Part shown: positions 1,459 to 9,890 of the stretch, in pieces
Layout: each line of letters starts with the position of its first letter
How positions within the stretch are numbered: the first letter of the stretch is position 1
Virus record (IMG/VR): IMGVR_UViG_2617270964_000007
Location: 1-21,272 of that record
DNA length: 21,272 bases
Origin: a virus
Taxonomy: Duplodnaviria; Heunggongvirae; Uroviricota; Caudoviricetes
Reading direction: 5' to 3' (one strand)
Position numbers and translations under genes: made by a program
Notes under the pieces: generated by a model
Databases searched by the model: none
What the model was told of the DNA's origin: nothing
What the model saw: the letters and a program-made list of their open reading frames with translations, nothing else

Positions 1459-2619
1459 TTACCCCATATTTAAATACACCACGTTCTCCTCTTGTGCCGT
1501 ATTTGTGCCATTGCGACTTATAATCGCATCGATTTTGCTTGCGTGCTCGGTGAGATGCCCGGCTGAAAGGTGGGCGTATCTTTGAACCATTTCGAGAGTT
1601 TCCCATCCTCCCATCTCTTTAAGTGCAAGAAGAGAGACACCGGACTGAACCAGCCAGCTTGCCCAGGTATGCCTCAGATCATGGAAGCGGAAGTTACTAA
1701 TGCCTGCCCGCTTTAACGCTCCCTTCCATGCCTTGTTGCTGTCGGTTCTCATCTTCCTTACCGCTGCTGTTTTTGTTCCGTCGCTTCGGTAGGCAGGTTT
1801 GGTGTGGACAAATACCCATCTCTTATGGAGCCCCTGCTGTTTTCTTAATATCTGGCATGCGGTTTCGTTAAGAGGAACTCCGATCGCATTGCCAGCTTTT
1901 GTTTCATCAGGGTGTATCCATGCCATTTTCTTATCCAGATCGACCTGTGACCACTCAAGGTCTGTAACGTTGGAACGGCGAAGGCCTGTCGTGATTGCAA
2001 ACATGACCACAGGGAAGAAGTGAGGAGCAATTTCTGCAAACAGGCGCTTCGATTCCTCCTCTGTAAGCCATCTGATGCGTCCATTCTTAACGCGTGGTGT
2101 TGATATTTTGGGTGCCCTGTCAAGCCATCCCCATTCAACAGCCATATTGAGAATGGCGCGAAGTATTGCCAGATGCCTCGTCTTCGTTCCTTTGCTTGCA
2201 AGCTTTGGTTTATACTCCGGCACCGGATTGCCAAGTCGCAAACACCTGTCCCGGCTCATCTCCCAGTTCAGGCGATGGCGGCGGTTTTCCATCCCATCTA
2301 CCGCCTCCATTATTTTTTCTGTTGTTATGTCAGAGAGAATGGCTTCTCTGAAGTGCAACATCCAGAACGATATAATGCTCTTGTCATCATCAATGGACTT
2401 CTTATCCGATTTCTCACGCAGCCACCGTATGCAGGCTTCCTTGAATAGCTTTTTCGGTGATTCCCCGAGATTTTTTACTCTCCACGCTTCTGCTTTCAGA
2501 CGATCGTGAAGTTCTTGCGCTTGCCTTTTGTCCGATGTTTCAAGAGAGCGTCTAACTCTTGATCCATCTGGCGCGACGAAATCGCAGTGCCACGTGCCAC
2601 CGCGTAGTTTGATTGACAT
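1459..2619 (-). CDS. int: Tyrosine-type site-specific integrase (P22/CP4-6 IntF-like), 386 aa
   Basis: ATG at 2619 preceded by AGGAGG. C-terminal catalytic region HDLRHTWASWLVQSGVSLLALKEMGGWETLEMVQRYAHLS carries the tyrosine-recombinase HxxR...Y signature. Position next to a tRNA att site. Confidence 0.9.
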   Translation of the reverse strand: MSIKLRGGTWHCDFVAPDGSRVRRSLETSDKRQAQELHDRLKAEAWRVKNLGESPKKLFKEACIRWLREKSDKKSIDDDKSIISFWMLHFREAILSDITTEKIMEAVDGMENRRHRLNWEMSRDRCLRLGNPVPEYKPKLASKGTKTRHLAILRAILNMAVEWGWLDRAPKISTPRVKNGRIRWLTEEESKRLFAEIAPHFFPVVMFAITTGLRRSNVTDLEWSQVDLDKKMAWIHPDETKAGNAIGVPLNETACQILRKQQGLHKRWVFVHTKPAYRSDGTKTAAVRKMRTDSNKAWKGALKRAGISNFRFHDLRHTWASWLVQSGVSLLALKEMGGWETLEMVQRYAHLSAGHLTEHASKIDAIISRNGTNTAQEENVVYLNMG

Positions 2620-5179: not shown

Positions 5180-5662
5180 TTATTTGATAAGAAGTGAAGG
5201 TTTCCCAACTTTGAGTTGAGCGCCGGGGATATTTATTCCTGCTTTTAGTTGGTGTTTGATTGCCAGTTTGTCGGCTTTAATTGTCGTTTCAAACTCAACG
5301 TATTCAGGAGGAAGGGCGCTTGAGTCGATTATTTCTACAATTTCTGACGGTTTGCGGATTGTTACCTGGTGAATACCTGCTCGAATATTTTTCTTGCCAA
5401 CCATTTCAAGCGATGACGCTATATATGATTTGATGCTGTCAATCTTATTTTGAATTACTGCGGCTCGCTCATTTAGTGACTTTGCCTCTTCCTTGAGGCG
5501 TTCAGCATAACCATATTCATTTTTAATAATGGCAAGAAGTTGCTCTATTTTATCGGTAAATTCTCCTTCCATGCCTTCTATTGTGTCAGCAATCATCTCT
5601 GGCTCTAAATCTGAATCCATCAGCTTTGCATATTCATTGGCTATTTCATACAGTTTGCTCAC
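5180..5662 (-). CDS. Siphovirus Gp157-family protein (recombination-module accessory), about 160 aa, probable GTG start
   Basis: Coiled-coil-rich sequence immediately downstream of recT. AGAGGT lies 5 nt upstream of the GTG at 5662. Gp157-family proteins commonly accompany RecT/Sak recombinases. Confidence 0.55.
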   Translation of the reverse strand: MSKLYEIANEYAKLMDSDLEPEMIADTIEGMEGEFTDKIEQLLAIIKNEYGYAERLKEEAKSLNERAAVIQNKIDSIKSYIASSLEMVGKKNIRAGIHQVTIRKPSEIVEIIDSSALPPEYVEFETTIKADKLAIKHQLKAGINIPGAQLKVGKPSLLIK

Positions 5663-6548
5663 TGGCAACCTCTAGTTTCGCTTTGCATTCTATGTAAATG
5701 GCTTGTACGTTCTGCTGCAATTTCATTCCAGATGTCAGGCGATATGCTTCTGCAAAATATCGCTTCAAATCATCCATGTTTTCTGCCTGAGCCATTTCAT
5801 CACAAAGAAGTTGTGCTTTTTCCATAATTTCCTGCTGGTGTTTCCGTTCATCTTCGCGGATATCTTCCTCTGATTTGTGCGGCATAACTGGTTCCTGATG
5901 CATACCTTCATCTTCGTTAAGCAGGTGAATGGCATTATCCAGTCGCTGGGCTTTAGGCCAGTATTTGCTGGCGCGTTTAACTATTGTTTTACGCGCCATC
6001 TCTTCCCAGAATGTTTTCCACGGTCCATTCTTTGCCTTGCTCGTTGCTTCCACTGCTTTAATTTCTGCCAGACTCATTTCTTCAGTCAGGTAGTCACCAT
6101 CTGCTGTTTTTACCGTGCAATAACCACCAACAATAGAGCCTCGCTCTCCAAATGCGTTGTATTTGTGAGTTGGTGCTGAATCAAGGCCGTTTGATTCATA
6201 GGTGTCGTTTGAGTACACCAGTTTGCATTGCCCCCACTTAATTGATCCTGTCGATTGCGCAAGATGAAGTAATCCCATGTAACTGATATCAAGGCACACC
6301 ATGCCGTCGCGAGGAACCAGATAAGCTAGTTTGCTGGCCGGGTTTAAGGTGATGCCGATCGCCGCAACATTGATGATGGCGTTCTGTGCGCTGGTTGGAT
6401 TTGCCAGTGCTGTTTTAGCCAGGTAATCGTTTTTCTGGAAATACTGAATTGCAAACTGGCTTTCCTTAGCCCATGTCACCGTCTGTTCAGTCAATGCTCC
6501 GCAGAATAACTGCTCTTGCTGTTTAACGAATTCAACGATATTGCTCAT
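5646..6548 (-). CDS. recT: RecT-family single-strand annealing recombinase, 300 aa
   Basis: ATG at 6548 with GGAGAAG upstream. The translation has the RecT/Red-beta core as I recognise it (…PRDGMVCLDISYMGLLHLA…FGERGSIVGGYC…). It sits in the recombination position of the leftward early operon. Confidence 0.8.
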   Translation of the reverse strand: MSNIVEFVKQQEQLFCGALTEQTVTWAKESQFAIQYFQKNDYLAKTALANPTSAQNAIINVAAIGITLNPASKLAYLVPRDGMVCLDISYMGLLHLAQSTGSIKWGQCKLVYSNDTYESNGLDSAPTHKYNAFGERGSIVGGYCTVKTADGDYLTEEMSLAEIKAVEATSKAKNGPWKTFWEEMARKTIVKRASKYWPKAQRLDNAIHLLNEDEGMHQEPVMPHKSEEDIREDERKHQQEIMEKAQLLCDEMAQAENMDDLKRYFAEAYRLTSGMKLQQNVQAIYIECKAKLEVASEQTV

Positions 6549-6856
6549 GCAGCTTCTCCATAAATATGTCTGCGTTTGAATATTGCGAAGGCATATTCAG
6601 CCTTAACTCTTTCGGTTATTGCATCCCAGAACCATTCAGCGGCTTTTTCCTGATAGTTACAGTCATCATCTTCCAGCCAGTCGATAGCGTCCTTAGTGTG
6701 TTCATCTGGTTTATATGAGCGAAGCATTTCGCTTATTGGGTCGCAACGTTTGCAGAGGCGATCAACTTCACTGTTGATTCGCTCGTAATCTTCATCAGTA
6801 AAACTTGCGATTATTTGCGATATTTCACGCTTATCATTCAGAGTCAGAATCATCAT
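6545..6856 (-). CDS. Hypothetical acidic protein, 103 aa
   Basis: ATG-ATG start at 6856 with AGGAGA upstream. Translationally coupled to recT (ATGA overlap). No family recognised. Confidence 0.5.
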   Translation of the reverse strand: MMILTLNDKREISQIIASFTDEDYERINSEVDRLCKRCDPISEMLRSYKPDEHTKDAIDWLEDDDCNYQEKAAEWFWDAITERVKAEYAFAIFKRRHIYGEAA

Positions 6857-6941
6857 CTTTCTCCTGTTCTTTGTGCTGATTGAGCATTTCTTTCATCTGA
6901 CGAATGAATTCTTCGTCTGACCAGTTATCTGTAAAACTCAT
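6834..6941 (-). CDS. Small hypothetical protein, 35 aa, acidic C-terminus
   Basis: Start overlaps the stop of the upstream Kil-like ORF (ATGA). The short SD spacing makes it uncertain. Confidence 0.2.
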   Translation of the reverse strand: MSFTDNWSDEEFIRQMKEMLNQHKEQEKDDDSDSE

Positions 6942-7090
6942 TTCCTGCGATACCATGGAAGGTTGATAGCTGATTTCATCGCTTTATTTGCTTCAAGCCA
7001 CATTTTTGAATCACCAATAAATCGGGCTATTACTGCTTTGTTTTGTGCAGCACGAAGCATCTGGTGATTGATGGCTATTTCATTGCGCAT
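6938..7090 (-). CDS. Small protein, possibly Kil-like (50 aa)
   Basis: ATG at 7090 with GGAGG 5 nt upstream. The segment IARFIGDSKMW resembles what I recall of lambda Kil, but the recollection is uncertain. Its position, just promoter-distal of the CIII-like ORF, matches lambda gene order. Confidence 0.35.
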   Translation of the reverse strand: MRNEIAINHQMLRAAQNKAVIARFIGDSKMWLEANKAMKSAINLPWYRRK

Positions 7091-7209
7091 AACGCCTCCA
7101 GTTGTTTCTTTGCTGCTCTGATTAATTGTTTAACTCGGCGTGATAATTCAGATTCGTGCGGGGAGAAAGCGGACATGACGCCGCTACCCGCGAGCTGAAA
7201 GTGCATCAT
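7075..7209 (-). CDS. Small protein, possibly CIII-like FtsH inhibitor (44 aa)
   Basis: ATG at 7209 with AAGGAG upstream. The translation MMHFQLAGSGVMSAFSPHESELSRRVKQLIRAAKKQLEAL echoes the lambda CIII pattern (…AIAG…SESLLERITRKLRDGWKRL…) as an amphipathic helix after an AG-rich start. Confidence 0.4.
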   Translation of the reverse strand: MMHFQLAGSGVMSAFSPHESELSRRVKQLIRAAKKQLEALCAMK

Positions 7210-7292
7210 GGGTAACTCCTTATATTTGATTGCATAACGAAAACGCCTCAAGTGAAGCGTTATTGGTATGCGGTAAAGCCGCGCTCAGGCGG

Positions 7293-7541
7293 CTACTCTA
7301 TTTCTTCTTCGAATGATTTTATTAGCCGGTCAATAACATCATCTGTTTCAATATCATTTCCGTCTGATTGCTTTAATACGTCTATTGATTCTGCTGCGGT
7401 AAATTCCATCGCTGTGAGAAACTCGACAATTGCACACTCAACGACATGTCGTTCTTCATCTGTACGACATGAGATAAAAGAGCATTTAATTGCTGTTATT
7501 ACTTTTTGTTTAAGTTCTGCAGGATAATCAGTTTTTATCAT
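7293..7541 (-). CDS. Hypothetical acidic protein, 82 aa
   Basis: ATG at 7541 with GGAG 7 nt upstream. It is the first gene after the intrinsic terminator at 7555-7584. No family recognised. Confidence 0.5.
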   Translation of the reverse strand: MIKTDYPAELKQKVITAIKCSFISCRTDEERHVVECAIVEFLTAMEFTAAESIDVLKQSDGNDIETDDVIDRLIKSFEEEIE

Positions 7542-7554
7542 CGTTTACTCCGTC

Positions 7555-7584
7555 AAAAAAAATTGCCCTCACACTGGAGGGCAA
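7555..7584 (-). terminator. Rho-independent terminator in the leftward early operon (tL-like)
   Basis: On the minus strand an 8-bp stem (TTGCCCTC / GAGGGCAA, 6-nt loop) is followed by a run of 8 U. It lies between the 7687-8157 gene and downstream early genes, so N-dependent readthrough would be needed. Confidence 0.6.
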
Positions 7585-7686
7585 AGAAGATTTCCAATAA
7601 TCAGAACAAGTCGGCTCCTGTTTAGTTACGAGCGACATTGCTCCGTGTATTCACTCGTTGGAATGAATACACAGTGCTTATTCGTA

Positions 7687-8157
7687 CTAATAAAACACCC
7701 AGTTTTCTGTTTCTTGGTTGTGTCCAAAGTTATATTCAATATCTGGTGTTGATGTATCAATATTCTTCATCCCATCAACAAGAGTTGATACAACAGCCAA
7801 ATCTTGTTTGATTCTCATTAAATGGTATTTCTTCCGGCGAAATAAACTTTCAATGGCAAGTTTCTTCGTTGGGAATGCAAAAGATCTTTCTGCATTTTTT
7901 GCTACTTTCTTAATTGCATATCTATTTCTCTTTTGTTTCCATTCCTGTAACCACTGATTTGGTGCTGGTTTAAAATTAACGATCCAATACGCAGGAACCA
8001 ACCATGCATAATGCTCTGTCTGATGAAAAGCTATATATTGAAGTGCGAATATTTTGATTCCATCTTCTTCAACTGTCGCCTGGAATCTCCAGAAAACAGG
8101 CATTCCATCATGTTCAGTTTCTGATTCAGGAAAAGGTACGCTCCATGATATTGTCAT
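7687..8157 (-). CDS. Hypothetical protein, 156 aa, moron-like gene in the N-proximal region (the position occupied by ral/sieB in lambda)
   Basis: ATG at 8157 with GAGGTG upstream. The gene is visibly AT-rich compared with its neighbours and is followed by a hairpin and an intrinsic terminator. I recognise no family. Confidence 0.55.
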   Translation of the reverse strand: MTISWSVPFPESETEHDGMPVFWRFQATVEEDGIKIFALQYIAFHQTEHYAWLVPAYWIVNFKPAPNQWLQEWKQKRNRYAIKKVAKNAERSFAFPTKKLAIESLFRRKKYHLMRIKQDLAVVSTLVDGMKNIDTSTPDIEYNFGHNQETENWVFY

Positions 8158-8219
8158 ATCTCACCTCAAATAAGTGGTTTGCTGCCAAAACAATAAACCA
8201 TCCGGAAATTCCAGATAGC

Positions 8220-8444
8220 TCATAATTCACTCTTCAATACTTCCAACTTACTAATCGCCGATAGATATCCGCGCTGATAGGGCATCATCATTCCTTCTAG
8301 CTTGCCACTTCTTAACTCCTCCCTGAGCAATTGTATTGCTTGATCAATAACCTCTGCCTTAGCGTCCTTTATGGCTTGCTTGCGGGGCTTTGCTTTCTGC
8401 TTTGGCAGATTTCTCAAGCATGATGGAATGTATGTCTGATTCAT
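8220..8444 (-). CDS. Hypothetical protein, about 74 aa, immediately downstream of the N-like gene
   Basis: ATG at 8444 abuts the N stop codon (TAA-GTG-ATG), with GAGG upstream. Lys/Arg-rich N-terminus. Unknown function. Confidence 0.45.
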   Translation of the reverse strand: MNQTYIPSCLRNLPKQKAKPRKQAIKDAKAEVIDQAIQLLREELRSGKLEGMMMPYQRGYLSAISKLEVLKSEL

Positions 8445-8447
8445 CAC

Positions 8448-8720
8448 TTACCTCGCCGTCAGTTGTTTTGATTTCCGGTAGCCTGCCGCGTAAATGGCTA
8501 CGTTTGGCAGGCAAATACTTCCGCTGCATTCATCTGCCTTCTTGCAGCGAAGGCTTCCGAGTGATGCTGCTTTATCTGCTCTGACGCAACCAGAGAGCTT
8601 TAGCGCAATCTTTCGCGCCAGTCGCTGTTCTTGCATTGCCTGTTCACGTTGAGCCTGTCTGCGTGCTCTGCGGCGATTTCTGGCGTTATCGTCAGCCAGA
8701 TATGTAATGACTACTGTCAT
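8448..8720 (-). CDS. N: N-like transcription antitermination protein with arginine-rich motif, 90 aa
   Basis: ATG at 8720 with GGAGGT upstream; the track ORF extends further 5' into the leader. It contains the arginine-rich motif NARNRRRARRQAQREQ near the N-terminus, and the ends (MTVVITY… / …YAAGYRKSKQLTAR) resemble P22 gp24 as I recall it. It is the first gene downstream of pL and nutL. Confidence 0.65.
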   Translation of the reverse strand: MTVVITYLADDNARNRRRARRQAQREQAMQEQRLARKIALKLSGCVRADKAASLGSLRCKKADECSGSICLPNVAIYAAGYRKSKQLTAR

Positions 8721-9031
8721 GTTGACCTCCGATGAAACAACTTTGGAATTGATAGTGATTGCAAAGTGGTTTCTGGCCCCTCGAACTGAGGGGCAGAAAG
8801 AGCATCTCGCCACCTAATAGGTCAATGCTCGGATCGAGAGATTTAATTAACCTCGGTTTTGAAGTTATGCATTCACATAAATCCTCCTGTTGCATGTGCA
8901 GCATTGGCTGTGTTTGGCGGCTGCATTTCGCCTATGGAATTGACTTTGGCGGTGACGCGCCGGGTGCTTATCTTCCGGTTGCCGTCGTGCAGCTGCACTT
9001 CACGTCACCCCAAAGCCAACTACTCTTTGGT

Positions 9032-9072
9032 TCCCGCATTTCGGCGGGACAATCCCATCAATGTTAAAGAGC
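9032..9072 (-). promoter_or_regulatory. nutL: nutL: boxA (GGCTCTTTAACA) and boxB hairpin (UCCCGCCGAAAUGCGGGA) on the leftward transcript
   Basis: Read on the minus strand, boxA at 9072-9062 matches the boxA consensus (TGCTCTTTAACA) in 11 of 12 positions. It is followed by a boxB stem-loop at 9049-9032 identical to the boxB found after cro at 10189-10206. Confidence 0.6.
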
Positions 9073-9119
9073 CTGCCAATCTGTTCCGTTTAGCTACCAG
9101 CGTCCTGCTGATGGCTTAA

Positions 9120-9201
9120 ATTTAAGATCTCTTTAATTAATGGTCAAGAGTATTTTTGAAGAAAACTTAAATTTTCTTTCGTAACTTAAGTTTGGCTTTG
9201 A
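9120..9201 (-). promoter_or_regulatory. oL/pL region: P22-type operators and leftward early promoter
   Basis: An 18-bp site ATTTAAGATCTCTTTAAT (9120-9137) fits ANTNAAG-N4-CTTNANT. A second site (9155-9172, TTTGAAGAAAACTTAAAT) has one mismatch, and a weaker third lies near 9184-9201. On the minus strand TTGACC (complement of 9142-9147), a 16-nt spacer and TTAAAT (complement of 9120-9125) form a sigma70-like promoter pointing at nutL and N. Confidence 0.6.
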
Positions 9202-9215
9202 TTTTTAAAGGAAAT

Positions 9216-9240
9216 AAAAAAAAAGGGGCGAATGCCCCCT
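9216..9240 (-). terminator. Rho-independent terminator at the 3' end of the repressor gene
   Basis: On the minus strand the hairpin GGGGGCATTCGCCCC overlaps the cI stop and is followed by 9 U (A-run 9216-9224 on the plus strand). It would insulate pL from repressor-gene transcription. Confidence 0.6.
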
Positions 9241-9890
9241 TATGGAAGGTTTGCTAGTTTTGCATCGACAACTACGCCGATGATTTTGCAGTTTCCGTTG
9301 ATCTCGATCATCGGATATTGTGGGTTAAGTGGTTTTAGAAACTTCCTGCCTGCATCAATAACTAACTTCTTGAAAGTTGCCTCGTTTTCTCCTTCGAGCT
9401 TTGCAACTACCAGTTTCCCGTTACGCGGCTCTACTTCAGGATCGACGAGTATTATCATTCCTTCAGGGATACTGAGACCGGCCGGAGCCGTCATTGAGTC
9501 TCCCTTCACGTCCAACCAAAACGAATCTTCTGAACAGTCTACGGTTGTATCGTACCAGTTATCTATTGCACGCTTATGATATGGTTCTACAGCTTCCATC
9601 CAGCATCCTGCGCTCACCCAGCTAATCAGAGGGTATGACCCTCTTGGATCATGCCTACTGTGATAGGCAATGTTTGAAAGACTTTCCTCTCCTTTCATCA
9701 GATAGTCAGGGGAACACTTCAACGCATTAGCCAGGGCGAGAAGATTCTCTCCATTTGGCTCTGTCTCAGAGCGTTCCCACTGAGATATGGCAACATTAGA
9801 CACGCCGACCATCTTTCCAAGTGCGGCCTGCCTGATCTTGAGTTCTTTTCTCCGAGCGCGAATGCGCTCTCCCATCAATTGAGTTTTCAT
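9240..9890 (-). CDS. c2: Phage repressor, P22 C2-type (HTH_XRE N-terminal domain plus LexA-like S24 autopeptidase domain), 216 aa
   Basis: HTH segment LKIRQAALGKMVGVSNVAISQWERSE. The C-terminal domain has the S24 catalytic motif GDSM and a downstream Lys (…VVAKLEG…). The whole protein closely resembles P22 C2 as I recall it. It is divergent from cro across operator sites. Confidence 0.9.
   Translation of the reverse strand: MKTQLMGERIRARRKELKIRQAALGKMVGVSNVAISQWERSETEPNGENLLALANALKCSPDYLMKGEESLSNIAYHSRHDPRGSYPLISWVSAGCWMEAVEPYHKRAIDNWYDTTVDCSEDSFWLDVKGDSMTAPAGLSIPEGMIILVDPEVEPRNGKLVVAKLEGENEATFKKLVIDAGRKFLKPLNPQYPMIEINGNCKIIGVVVDAKLANLP

Follow-up and report, generated by a model that had tools for sequence, protein, structure and literature searches.

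A 21,272-nucleotide (nt) stretch of DNA (IMG/VR virus record IMGVR_UViG_2617270964_000007, positions 1 to 21,272, here called the window) covers the left arm with the immunity region of a lambdoid Escherichia coli prophage, and it carries, between the N and cIII genes of its early-left operon, a gene for a protein of 156 amino acids (aa) directly followed by the small RNA (sRNA) PreS. In our opinion, which leans modestly towards this reading, gene and RNA make up a two-part cassette of the operon of the promoter pL, in which a protein of the HK97 Gp45 / 933W L0079 family would serve as an early lytic effector. The gene would be transcribed from pL along with N once the repressor is gone, and its product would act in the infected cell and not in the lysogen. 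A basic hairpin-helix face of the protein (residues 74-120) may bind nucleic acid or an acidic host protein, most likely to blunt host defence or otherwise to condition the host for phage DNA metabolism, and PreS, as the 3' untranslated region (UTR) of the gene ending at the terminator tL2a, would raise DnaN and promote lytic replication as in lambda. The identity of both parts and the boundaries of the cassette are firmly established, and the elements concerned are as follows.

7555-8186, minus strand: mosaic cassette of Shine-Dalgarno sequence, open reading frame (ORF) and PreS, delimited by megablast coverage limits and a four-way alignment.
8167-8161, minus strand: Shine-Dalgarno sequence GAGGTGA, 3 nt before the ATG and invariant in HK97, 933W and phi24B.
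7687-8157, minus strand: 156-aa gene of the HK97 Gp45 / 933W L0079 / phi24B vb_24B_11c family, from the ORF list and a PHROG 1636 match.
7642-7678, minus strand: strong hairpin of 14+2 base pairs (bp), lying between the stop codon and the 5' end of the ~88-nt PreS, within the block conserved with lambda.
7555-7642 (approximate, ~88-nt form), minus strand: PreS (LPR1) sRNA, from identity to the lambda ral-ea10 spacer.
7555-7584, minus strand: intrinsic terminator, equivalent of lambda tL2a, with the stem 7584-7577 / 7570-7563 and T8 at 7562-7555.
8193-8223, minus strand: AU-rich 14-bp hairpin followed by UUAUUGUUUU, a poor U tract, overlapping the stop of a 75-aa ORF.

An earlier note on this DNA had described the ORF as preceded by a good Shine-Dalgarno sequence, richer in AT than the flanking early genes, coding for a soluble protein and lying between N and the small CIII/Kil-like ORFs, and all of this was confirmed. 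The ORF starts with ATG and has a GC content of 35.9% (28.7% at third codon positions, GC3), as against 47.1% in the window as a whole, 51% in N and 46% in cIII (N, cIII, recT and cI together span 45-51%), and its product is hydrophilic (hydropathy index GRAVY -0.52, isoelectric point (pI) 8.7) and has no long hydrophobic stretch. In comparisons with the homologues from Cronobacter, Pectobacterium, Rosenbergiella and phage NX263, the proportion of synonymous differences (pS) was 0.69-0.89, synonymous sites being saturated between genera, and that of nonsynonymous differences (pN) was 0.19-0.30. With pN far below pS, the ORF is shown to be a genuine gene on which purifying selection acts, and this selection on the protein is firmly established.

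The protein matches PHROG 1636 (function unknown) over its entire length (E 8e-110, residues 1-156 of 156) and is 96.8-98.1% identical to HK97 Gp45 (NP_037731), 933W L0079 (AAD25424) and an unannotated ORF of H-19B, and likewise to vb_24B_11c of phi24B; in the full-length comparison with type members, identity was 96.8% for HK97 Gp45 and 97-98% for 933W and H-19B. The same protein was found in dozens of phages converting to production of Shiga toxin (Stx) 1 or 2, about 82 phage records carrying the ORF, and in 598 of 5426 complete E. coli genomes (11%, about one in nine), in up to four copies and always under the PGAP label "hypothetical protein". At 55-84% identity, homologues are carried by Salmonella phage NX263 and by prophages of Cronobacter, Pectobacterium, Brenneria, Rosenbergiella and Symbiopectobacterium. 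An exhaustive profile search widened the family to 91 clusters at 50% identity, mostly of proteins of ~135-155 aa that are collinear with the 156-aa protein and 20-28% identical to it; every one of them matches PHROG 1636, and the majority belong with PHROGs 13631 and 25384 (function unknown) as well. This wider family was found by tblastn in phages of Pantoea, Klebsiella, Vibrio and Pseudomonas and by structure comparison in those of Erwinia, Sinorhizobium, Rhizobium, Tenacibaculum, Delftia and Cellulophaga, the structure-level relatives being all uncharacterised phage proteins. Two long repeat proteins of the deep HMMER list, P0096 and P0116, were dismissed as spurious.

The statement of the earlier note that the product matches no family holds for named families, since scans of the 156-aa protein against Pfam, NCBIfam and PADLOC gave no match, but it does not hold for PHROG 1636 and the HK97 Gp45 / 933W L0079 proteins. 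The same scans of 42-80 family members gave nothing meaningful (the defence-system profiles of PADLOC-DB produced scattered chance matches among 80 of them), and none of the family members bears a named function. A search of the literature on L0079, HK97 gp45, vb_24B_11c, phrog_1636 and lambdoid anti-defence hotspots returned nothing about the protein, which has been catalogued since the HK97 and 933W genomes yet is uncharacterised in the literature searched.

The cassette of ~630 bp extends from 29 nt 5' of the ATG to the T-run and is 98-99% identical in HK97, 933W and phi24B (H-19B shares it as well), while on both sides its flanks are unrelated across HK97, 933W and phi24B. The gene order from N onwards is 156-aa gene-PreS and ssb in 933W and phi24B, 156-aa gene-PreS and cIII in HK97, a 75-aa ORF, 156-aa gene-PreS, an 82-aa ORF and cIII in the window, and several ORFs, ral, 156-aa gene-PreS and kil in phi367; in lambda, the slot is taken by ral-PreS. 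Even closely related Stx phages differ at the slot between N and ssb, because the Stx2 prophage Sakai Sp5 (locus L018, 9721-9972) holds there a different 83-aa hypothetical gene, ECs_1180, in place of the 156-aa gene. The survey of the slot in related phages therefore bore out its variability, with ral in lambda, the 83-aa gene in Sp5 and both ral and the 156-aa gene in phi367. The gene arrangement supports the view that the 156-aa gene is dispensable accessory cargo of the hypervariable N-cIII interval and one of several alternative slot genes.

In all E. coli copies examined, the 156-aa gene is physically linked to PreS, whereas in Cronobacter, Pectobacterium, Rosenbergiella and NX263 the ORF is not followed by PreS. 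Since the ORF occurs without PreS outside the E. coli-type lambdoid phages, the two are separable modules, which in E. coli phages are fixed together; conversely, the PreS element (at least 95% identity) is present in 325 phage records as against ~82 with the ORF. The exchange points of the cassette coincide with terminators. In the Cronobacter (locus L010, 3960-4500) and Pectobacterium (locus L008, 3955-4540) homologues, of 59-62% identity, a hairpin followed by a T-run lies both before the Shine-Dalgarno sequence and after the stop codon, and these hairpins are clear intrinsic terminators except for the weaker downstream one in Pectobacterium. The gene seems, then, to be exchanged as a terminator-bounded unit, and the Cronobacter and Pectobacterium copies would seem to need antitermination for their expression.

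The earlier note considered the gene to be bracketed by a hairpin and a terminator. Both elements are real: the inverted repeat placed at 7645-7676 proved to have a longer stem (14+2 bp) than the 9 bp described, and the terminator at 7555-7584 was confirmed as an 8-bp stem with five GC pairs, a 6-nt loop and T8. However, both lie downstream of the gene, upstream of which there is only the separate weak hairpin 8223-8193, and they are not punctuation of its own: the region 7677-7555 is the PreS/LPR1 locus of lambda with tL2a. Positions 7677-7565 are identical to the lambda ral-ea10 spacer with no gaps; the first mismatch, at 7564, lies at the foot of the terminator stem, and the T-run, too, is different. 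This match falls within the limits by which the authors who described LPR1 recognised it, namely identity of at least 92% to the lambda sequence and at most three gaps (10.1101/2024.10.31.621285), and the GC-rich terminator stem with its poly-U tract lies, as is characteristic of PreS, in the early-left operon on the pL strand. The 5' end of PreS at ~7642 was obtained by counting 88 nt back from the T-run. An Rfam scan gave only a tRNA above gathering thresholds, PreS not being an Rfam family, and an SraG match in a permissive scan of 7200-9300 was rejected as due to chance.

In lambda, LPR1 was renamed PreS in a RIL-seq study, where it was shown to be an Hfq-dependent sRNA encoded between ral and ea10, with tL2a as its 3' end and with forms of ~88 nt and, after processing, ~68 nt that have this end in common and are present in the lytic cycle only (10.1101/2024.10.31.621285). 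Its pairing upstream of dnaN opens up the ribosome-binding site of that gene, which leads to more DnaN translation and promotes lytic replication; it also represses alaS and makes a 2-4-fold contribution to phage yield on spontaneous induction (10.1101/2024.10.31.621285). Because the sequence is the same, Hfq binding, lytic expression and pairing with dnaN should carry over to PreS of the window, where the terminator would, by analogy, form the 3' end and the Hfq-binding module of the sRNA. The strong hairpin just 5' of PreS has a folding energy (dG) of -20.4 kcal/mol and z of -6.1, none of 200 shuffled sequences folding as well, and it may mark a processing or 5'-end site of PreS or may define or protect that end. 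The hairpin 8223-8193 (dG -23 kcal/mol for an 83-nt region, z -2.8) is not conserved in 933W and HK97 and is a weak terminator-like element at the 5' boundary of the cassette.

Structure prediction, which the earlier note had suggested as a check, gave a confident model with no solved relative. With 22 close sequences, AlphaFold produced one good model of five (mean predicted local accuracy, pLDDT, 81.9), and with 80 diverse sequences all five models (AF2) agreed, with pLDDT 95.6 and predicted template-modelling score (pTM) 0.82. The model is one compact domain of three long antiparallel beta strands (19-30, 33-46 and 50-55), two short helices (58-61, 66-74), a beta hairpin (~83-95) and a helix of 33 residues (98-130), with confidently placed N- and C-terminal tails; the acidic, aromatic C-terminal tail packs back onto the domain. 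Searches with PDB sequence profiles were negative, and on this evidence the predicted fold would be one without a solved relative; the absence of a known fold or family is firmly established.

Conservation across the family includes [YW]23-R24, G33, E46-T47, K75, K83/R84, K87, R91/92, F-A-F 93-95, T97, the invariant A101, R108-K109, Q112, H115, G145 and a C-terminal aromatic-x-F-[D/E] motif. The sequences show a pattern of charge: the conserved segment 74-120 is strongly basic, its net charge ranging from +5 to +14 with a median of +10, the C-terminal tail has a median of -3.5, and pI exceeds 8 in 90% of the members. The enterobacterial subfamily has an additional N-terminal segment, SWSVPFPESE, and carries Q, H and R in place of E46, C49 and H115. 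Among distant members, H45, C49, C53 and H115 tend to occur together (13 sequences have all four and 12 have none, a count uncorrected for kinship), which hints at a possible metal site that would bridge the beta2-beta3 hairpin and the long helix. In the window subfamily, these positions are H, H, L and R; the set is not present, and a metal site of this kind in the window protein was rejected.

With regard to expression, a consensus scan found no sigma-70-like promoter on the coding strand from 8447 to 8158, although such a scan cannot exclude a weak one, and the conserved leader within the cassette has 29 nt and no room for a promoter. Strong terminators on the coding strand are limited to 7584-7555 and the terminator of cI. 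Since there is no promoter in the leader or between N and the ORF, the gene would have to be transcribed from pL and would be shut off by CI in the lysogen. In the window, 933W and HK97, PreS/tL2a is the first strong intrinsic terminator after N, so the ORF should lie on the earliest pL transcript and its product should be among the first made.

In Salmonella phage NX263, the homologue (63% identity) is promoter-proximal, being the first gene behind a near-consensus sigma-70 promoter, TTGACG-17-TATAGT. Its operon (locus L007, 3931-6401) is short, lies between structural genes of opposite orientation and also encodes a protein like the DNA polymerase III beta subunit, and this DnaN-like gene beside the homologue makes an intriguing parallel to the raising of DnaN by PreS in lambdoid phages. 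In the prophages of Marinobacterium and Pseudomaricurvus and the phages of Pantoea, Klebsiella, Vibrio and Pseudomonas that were examined, it has the same orientation as the arrays of small early genes among which it lies; homologues repeatedly lie near orphan DNA methyltransferases and recombination genes, and no constant partner gene was seen across the contexts examined. Relatives are also found in early operons of probably virulent groups, such as the Ackermannviridae-like Erwinia phage phiEa2809. The occurrence of family members in early operons of other, some probably virulent, phages argues for a function during the lytic cycle over superinfection exclusion.

Several points weigh against an early lytic effector that is made at once from pL and works through its basic face. 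Owing to Rho-dependent termination and the weak hairpin 8223-8193, expression could depend on N, that is, be delayed-early, and the Cronobacter and Pectobacterium copies have an intrinsic terminator directly before the Shine-Dalgarno sequence. On a metagenomic contig (L016), the gene stands alone and convergent with tail genes, the only moron-like arrangement seen; this copy would need its own promoter and looks more like a moron. The basic segment could serve protein-protein contacts or mere stability of the fold, and since Q, H and R stand where the family otherwise conserves E46, C49 and H115, the subfamily may differ in its mode of action from its distant relatives.

As for the purpose of such an effector, we rank counter-defence first, help in transactions of phage DNA or RNA second and exclusion by the lysogen third. 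In the first case, which is a sharper version of the favoured explanation and which we hold tentatively, as a reasonable guess, a dedicated early protein would inactivate a host nuclease or nucleic-acid sensor or would coat phage DNA or RNA. Such a role fits AT-rich cargo in a hypervariable slot shared with ral, with neighbours that include ral itself (phi367) and the 82-aa ORF annotated as anti-restriction, as well as the early position of the gene (promoter-proximal in NX263), its recurrence beside orphan DNA methyltransferases, its patchy presence in E. coli genomes and the spread of the family in phages of many Proteobacteria. On the other hand, the protein was not found in that part of the supplementary files of one large accessory-gene screen that was covered, and the literature searched yielded no data on escape or sensitisation. 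Conservation at 98% among E. coli phages is also atypical of an arms race, though exchange of the cassette could explain it.

Slightly behind stands the possibility, also rather unlikely in our estimation, of a DNA- or RNA-binding factor that assists replication, recombination or transcription/antitermination, is not aimed at immunity and might cooperate with the boost of DnaN by PreS. The conserved basic segment of beta hairpin and helix would suit it, as would the proximity of N, ssb/ea10 and recombination genes, the linkage to PreS in all E. coli copies examined and the DnaN-like gene in the same small operon of NX263. But core functions do not require the gene, which lambda, Sp5 and the majority of phages with PreS do not have, and it lacks a constant partner across contexts.

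The earlier note compared the gene with the ral and sieB morons and thought a host-defence or anti-defence factor plausible, which can be read as a moron expressed in the lysogen, with superinfection exclusion or restriction alleviation like those of sieB and ral. Its placing of the gene in the ral/sieB slot was correct in so far as this is an accessory gene in a hypervariable slot occupied by ral in lambda, and a composition different from the flanks, a terminator downstream and the lone opposite-strand homologue of L016 within a structural module are in keeping with a moron. This reading is, however, improbable: neither the 29-nt leader nor the region upstream contains a recognisable promoter, the gene is co-oriented within the pL operon and would be repressed in the prophage, and homologues lie in early operons of other phages. 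Of the marks of a moron in the Hendrix/Juhala sense, deviant composition and a terminator after the gene are found here and an own promoter is not, but this terminator belongs to PreS (tL2a). Comparison with Pfam and PHROGs revealed no homology to Ral or SieB. A Ral-like identity was rejected, as there is no Ral-family match and phi367 carries a separate ral beside the 156-aa gene, and so was a SieB-like identity, given no SieB match, a hydrophilic protein that, unlike SieB, has no transmembrane segments, and no promoter found. An incidental ORF, in a segment whose sole importance would be as a 5' precursor or carrier of PreS, is very improbable, for although the two move as one cassette in E. 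coli lambdoid phages, the strong purifying selection, the confident predicted fold and, effectively refuting it, the full-length homologues in genera and phages without PreS speak against it.

The 156-aa gene with PreS is set in a prophage region whose other features are listed below.

1-1254: host-like ORF of 417 aa.
1369-1444: tRNA-Thr(CGU), 15 nt from the end of the integrase-sized ORF.
1459-2619, minus strand: integrase-sized ORF of 386 aa.
5646-6548, minus strand (early-left): RecT.
6938-7090, minus strand: Kil.
7075-7251, minus strand: CIII.
7293-7541, minus strand: 82-aa ORF.
8220-8447, minus strand: 75-aa ORF.
8448-8813, minus strand: N-type antiterminator.
9049-9032, minus strand: boxB-like hairpin TCCCGC-CGAAAT-GCGGGA.
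9073-9063, minus strand: boxA-like GGCTCTTTAAC, between the pL-like site and N.
9147-9119, minus strand: pL-like promoter TTGACC-17-TAAATT, from a consensus scan.
9240-9890: CI-like repressor.
From 9971: cro-like gene.

All early-left genes are on the minus strand, in the order N, 75-aa ORF, 156-aa gene, 82-aa ORF, cIII and kil, and the attachment site is probably at the tRNA-Thr(CGU). The boxA/boxB-like stretch at ~9073-9032 we take to be nutL, from what is known of the nut sites of lambda and H-19B; it is followed by a leader of ~300 nt after the boxB-like hairpin, and the likely start of N is at 8721 (GGAGG, then ATG). The 82-aa ORF, directly 3' of PreS, codes for an acidic protein (pI 4.35; GC 34.9%, GC3 22.9%) matching PHROG 14587, whose label 'anti-restriction protein' is an annotation with no Pfam support; it is 98.8% identical to an ORF of HK446, and many Salmonella phage records, such as the 'seszw' records and 64795_sal3, have ORFs of ~40% identity to it. 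The basic product of the 75-aa ORF between N and the 156-aa gene belongs to PHROG 5305 (function unknown), and this ORF is present in phi367 and absent from 933W and HK97. The kil-recT interval has no lambda-type gam and contains an acidic 103-aa ORF (6545-6856, minus strand; PHROG 3486, function unknown), and a 162-aa coiled-coil-looking ORF (5180-5668, minus strand) overlaps the end of recT; either of the two could be an analogue of a nuclease inhibitor.

A gene carried by phages that serve as models or matter in medicine (HK97, 933W, H-19B and many Stx1- and Stx2-converting phages) has been called "hypothetical" for 25 years, and when Stx prophages are induced its product is probably one of the earliest proteins to appear. 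In being uncharacterised it resembles many other early genes of phages; it stands out by being common in Stx phages, probably made very early and easy to test in HK97. The RNA elements (PreS and tL2a) were already known, as was the protein in its catalogued but uncharacterised state, and what is new is the breadth of the family, the confident but unmatched predicted fold and the movement of gene and PreS as one unit. A broad family with a confident fold and no solved relative is a tractable target in the search for new activities of host takeover or counter-defence. Deletions and annotations of the 156-aa gene must spare PreS, otherwise phenotypes will be confounded, and PreS itself serves as 3' UTR to cargo genes that differ from one lambdoid phage to another. 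As a bolder and rather speculative idea, the gp45/L0079 family may found a new class of early effectors, widespread in phages of Proteobacteria, with a fold absent from the PDB, that would neutralise a common component of host immunity or nucleic-acid surveillance through the basic face and the acidic aromatic tail; travelling with PreS in E. coli lambdoid phages, it might form one mobile unit that both disarms the host and raises the replication clamp.

Compared with known systems, the window is closest to HK97 (Gp45), 933W (L0079), phi24B and H-19B, which have the same protein, Shine-Dalgarno sequence and downstream PreS with terminator in the pL operon. In HK97 and 933W, however, the gene directly follows N, whereas the 75-aa ORF intervenes in the window phage, and the cassette is followed by the AT-rich 82-aa ORF in the window phage, by ssb/ea10 in 933W and directly by cIII in HK97. 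The wider family of ~140-aa proteins, exemplified by Pantoea LIET2 gp069, Pseudomonas 8P_059, Vibrio PvVp04 gp07, Erwinia phiEa2809, Sinorhizobium ort11 and Delftia RG-2014, resembles the window protein in predicted fold, length, basic core, C-terminal aromatic-x-F-[D/E] and location among early genes, and differs from it in the low identity, the absence of the N-terminal SWSVPFPESE extension and, in many members, the presence of H45/C49/C53/H115, which the window subfamily lacks. Small beta domains of the Tudor, KOW, PipX and UvrD-CTD type gave scores below any accepted threshold and do not match the topology of beta hairpin plus 33-residue helix, so that they provide a lead and no classification. 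PreS comes after ral in lambda; in the window, HK97 and 933W, the 156-aa gene has it as its 3' UTR. Ral and SieB of lambda share with this gene the variable N-cIII interval, and Ral is likewise an early accessory protein, but Ral has 66 aa, and SieB has ~190 aa, lies on the opposite strand and has its own expression, neither being similar to the 156-aa protein in sequence or size.

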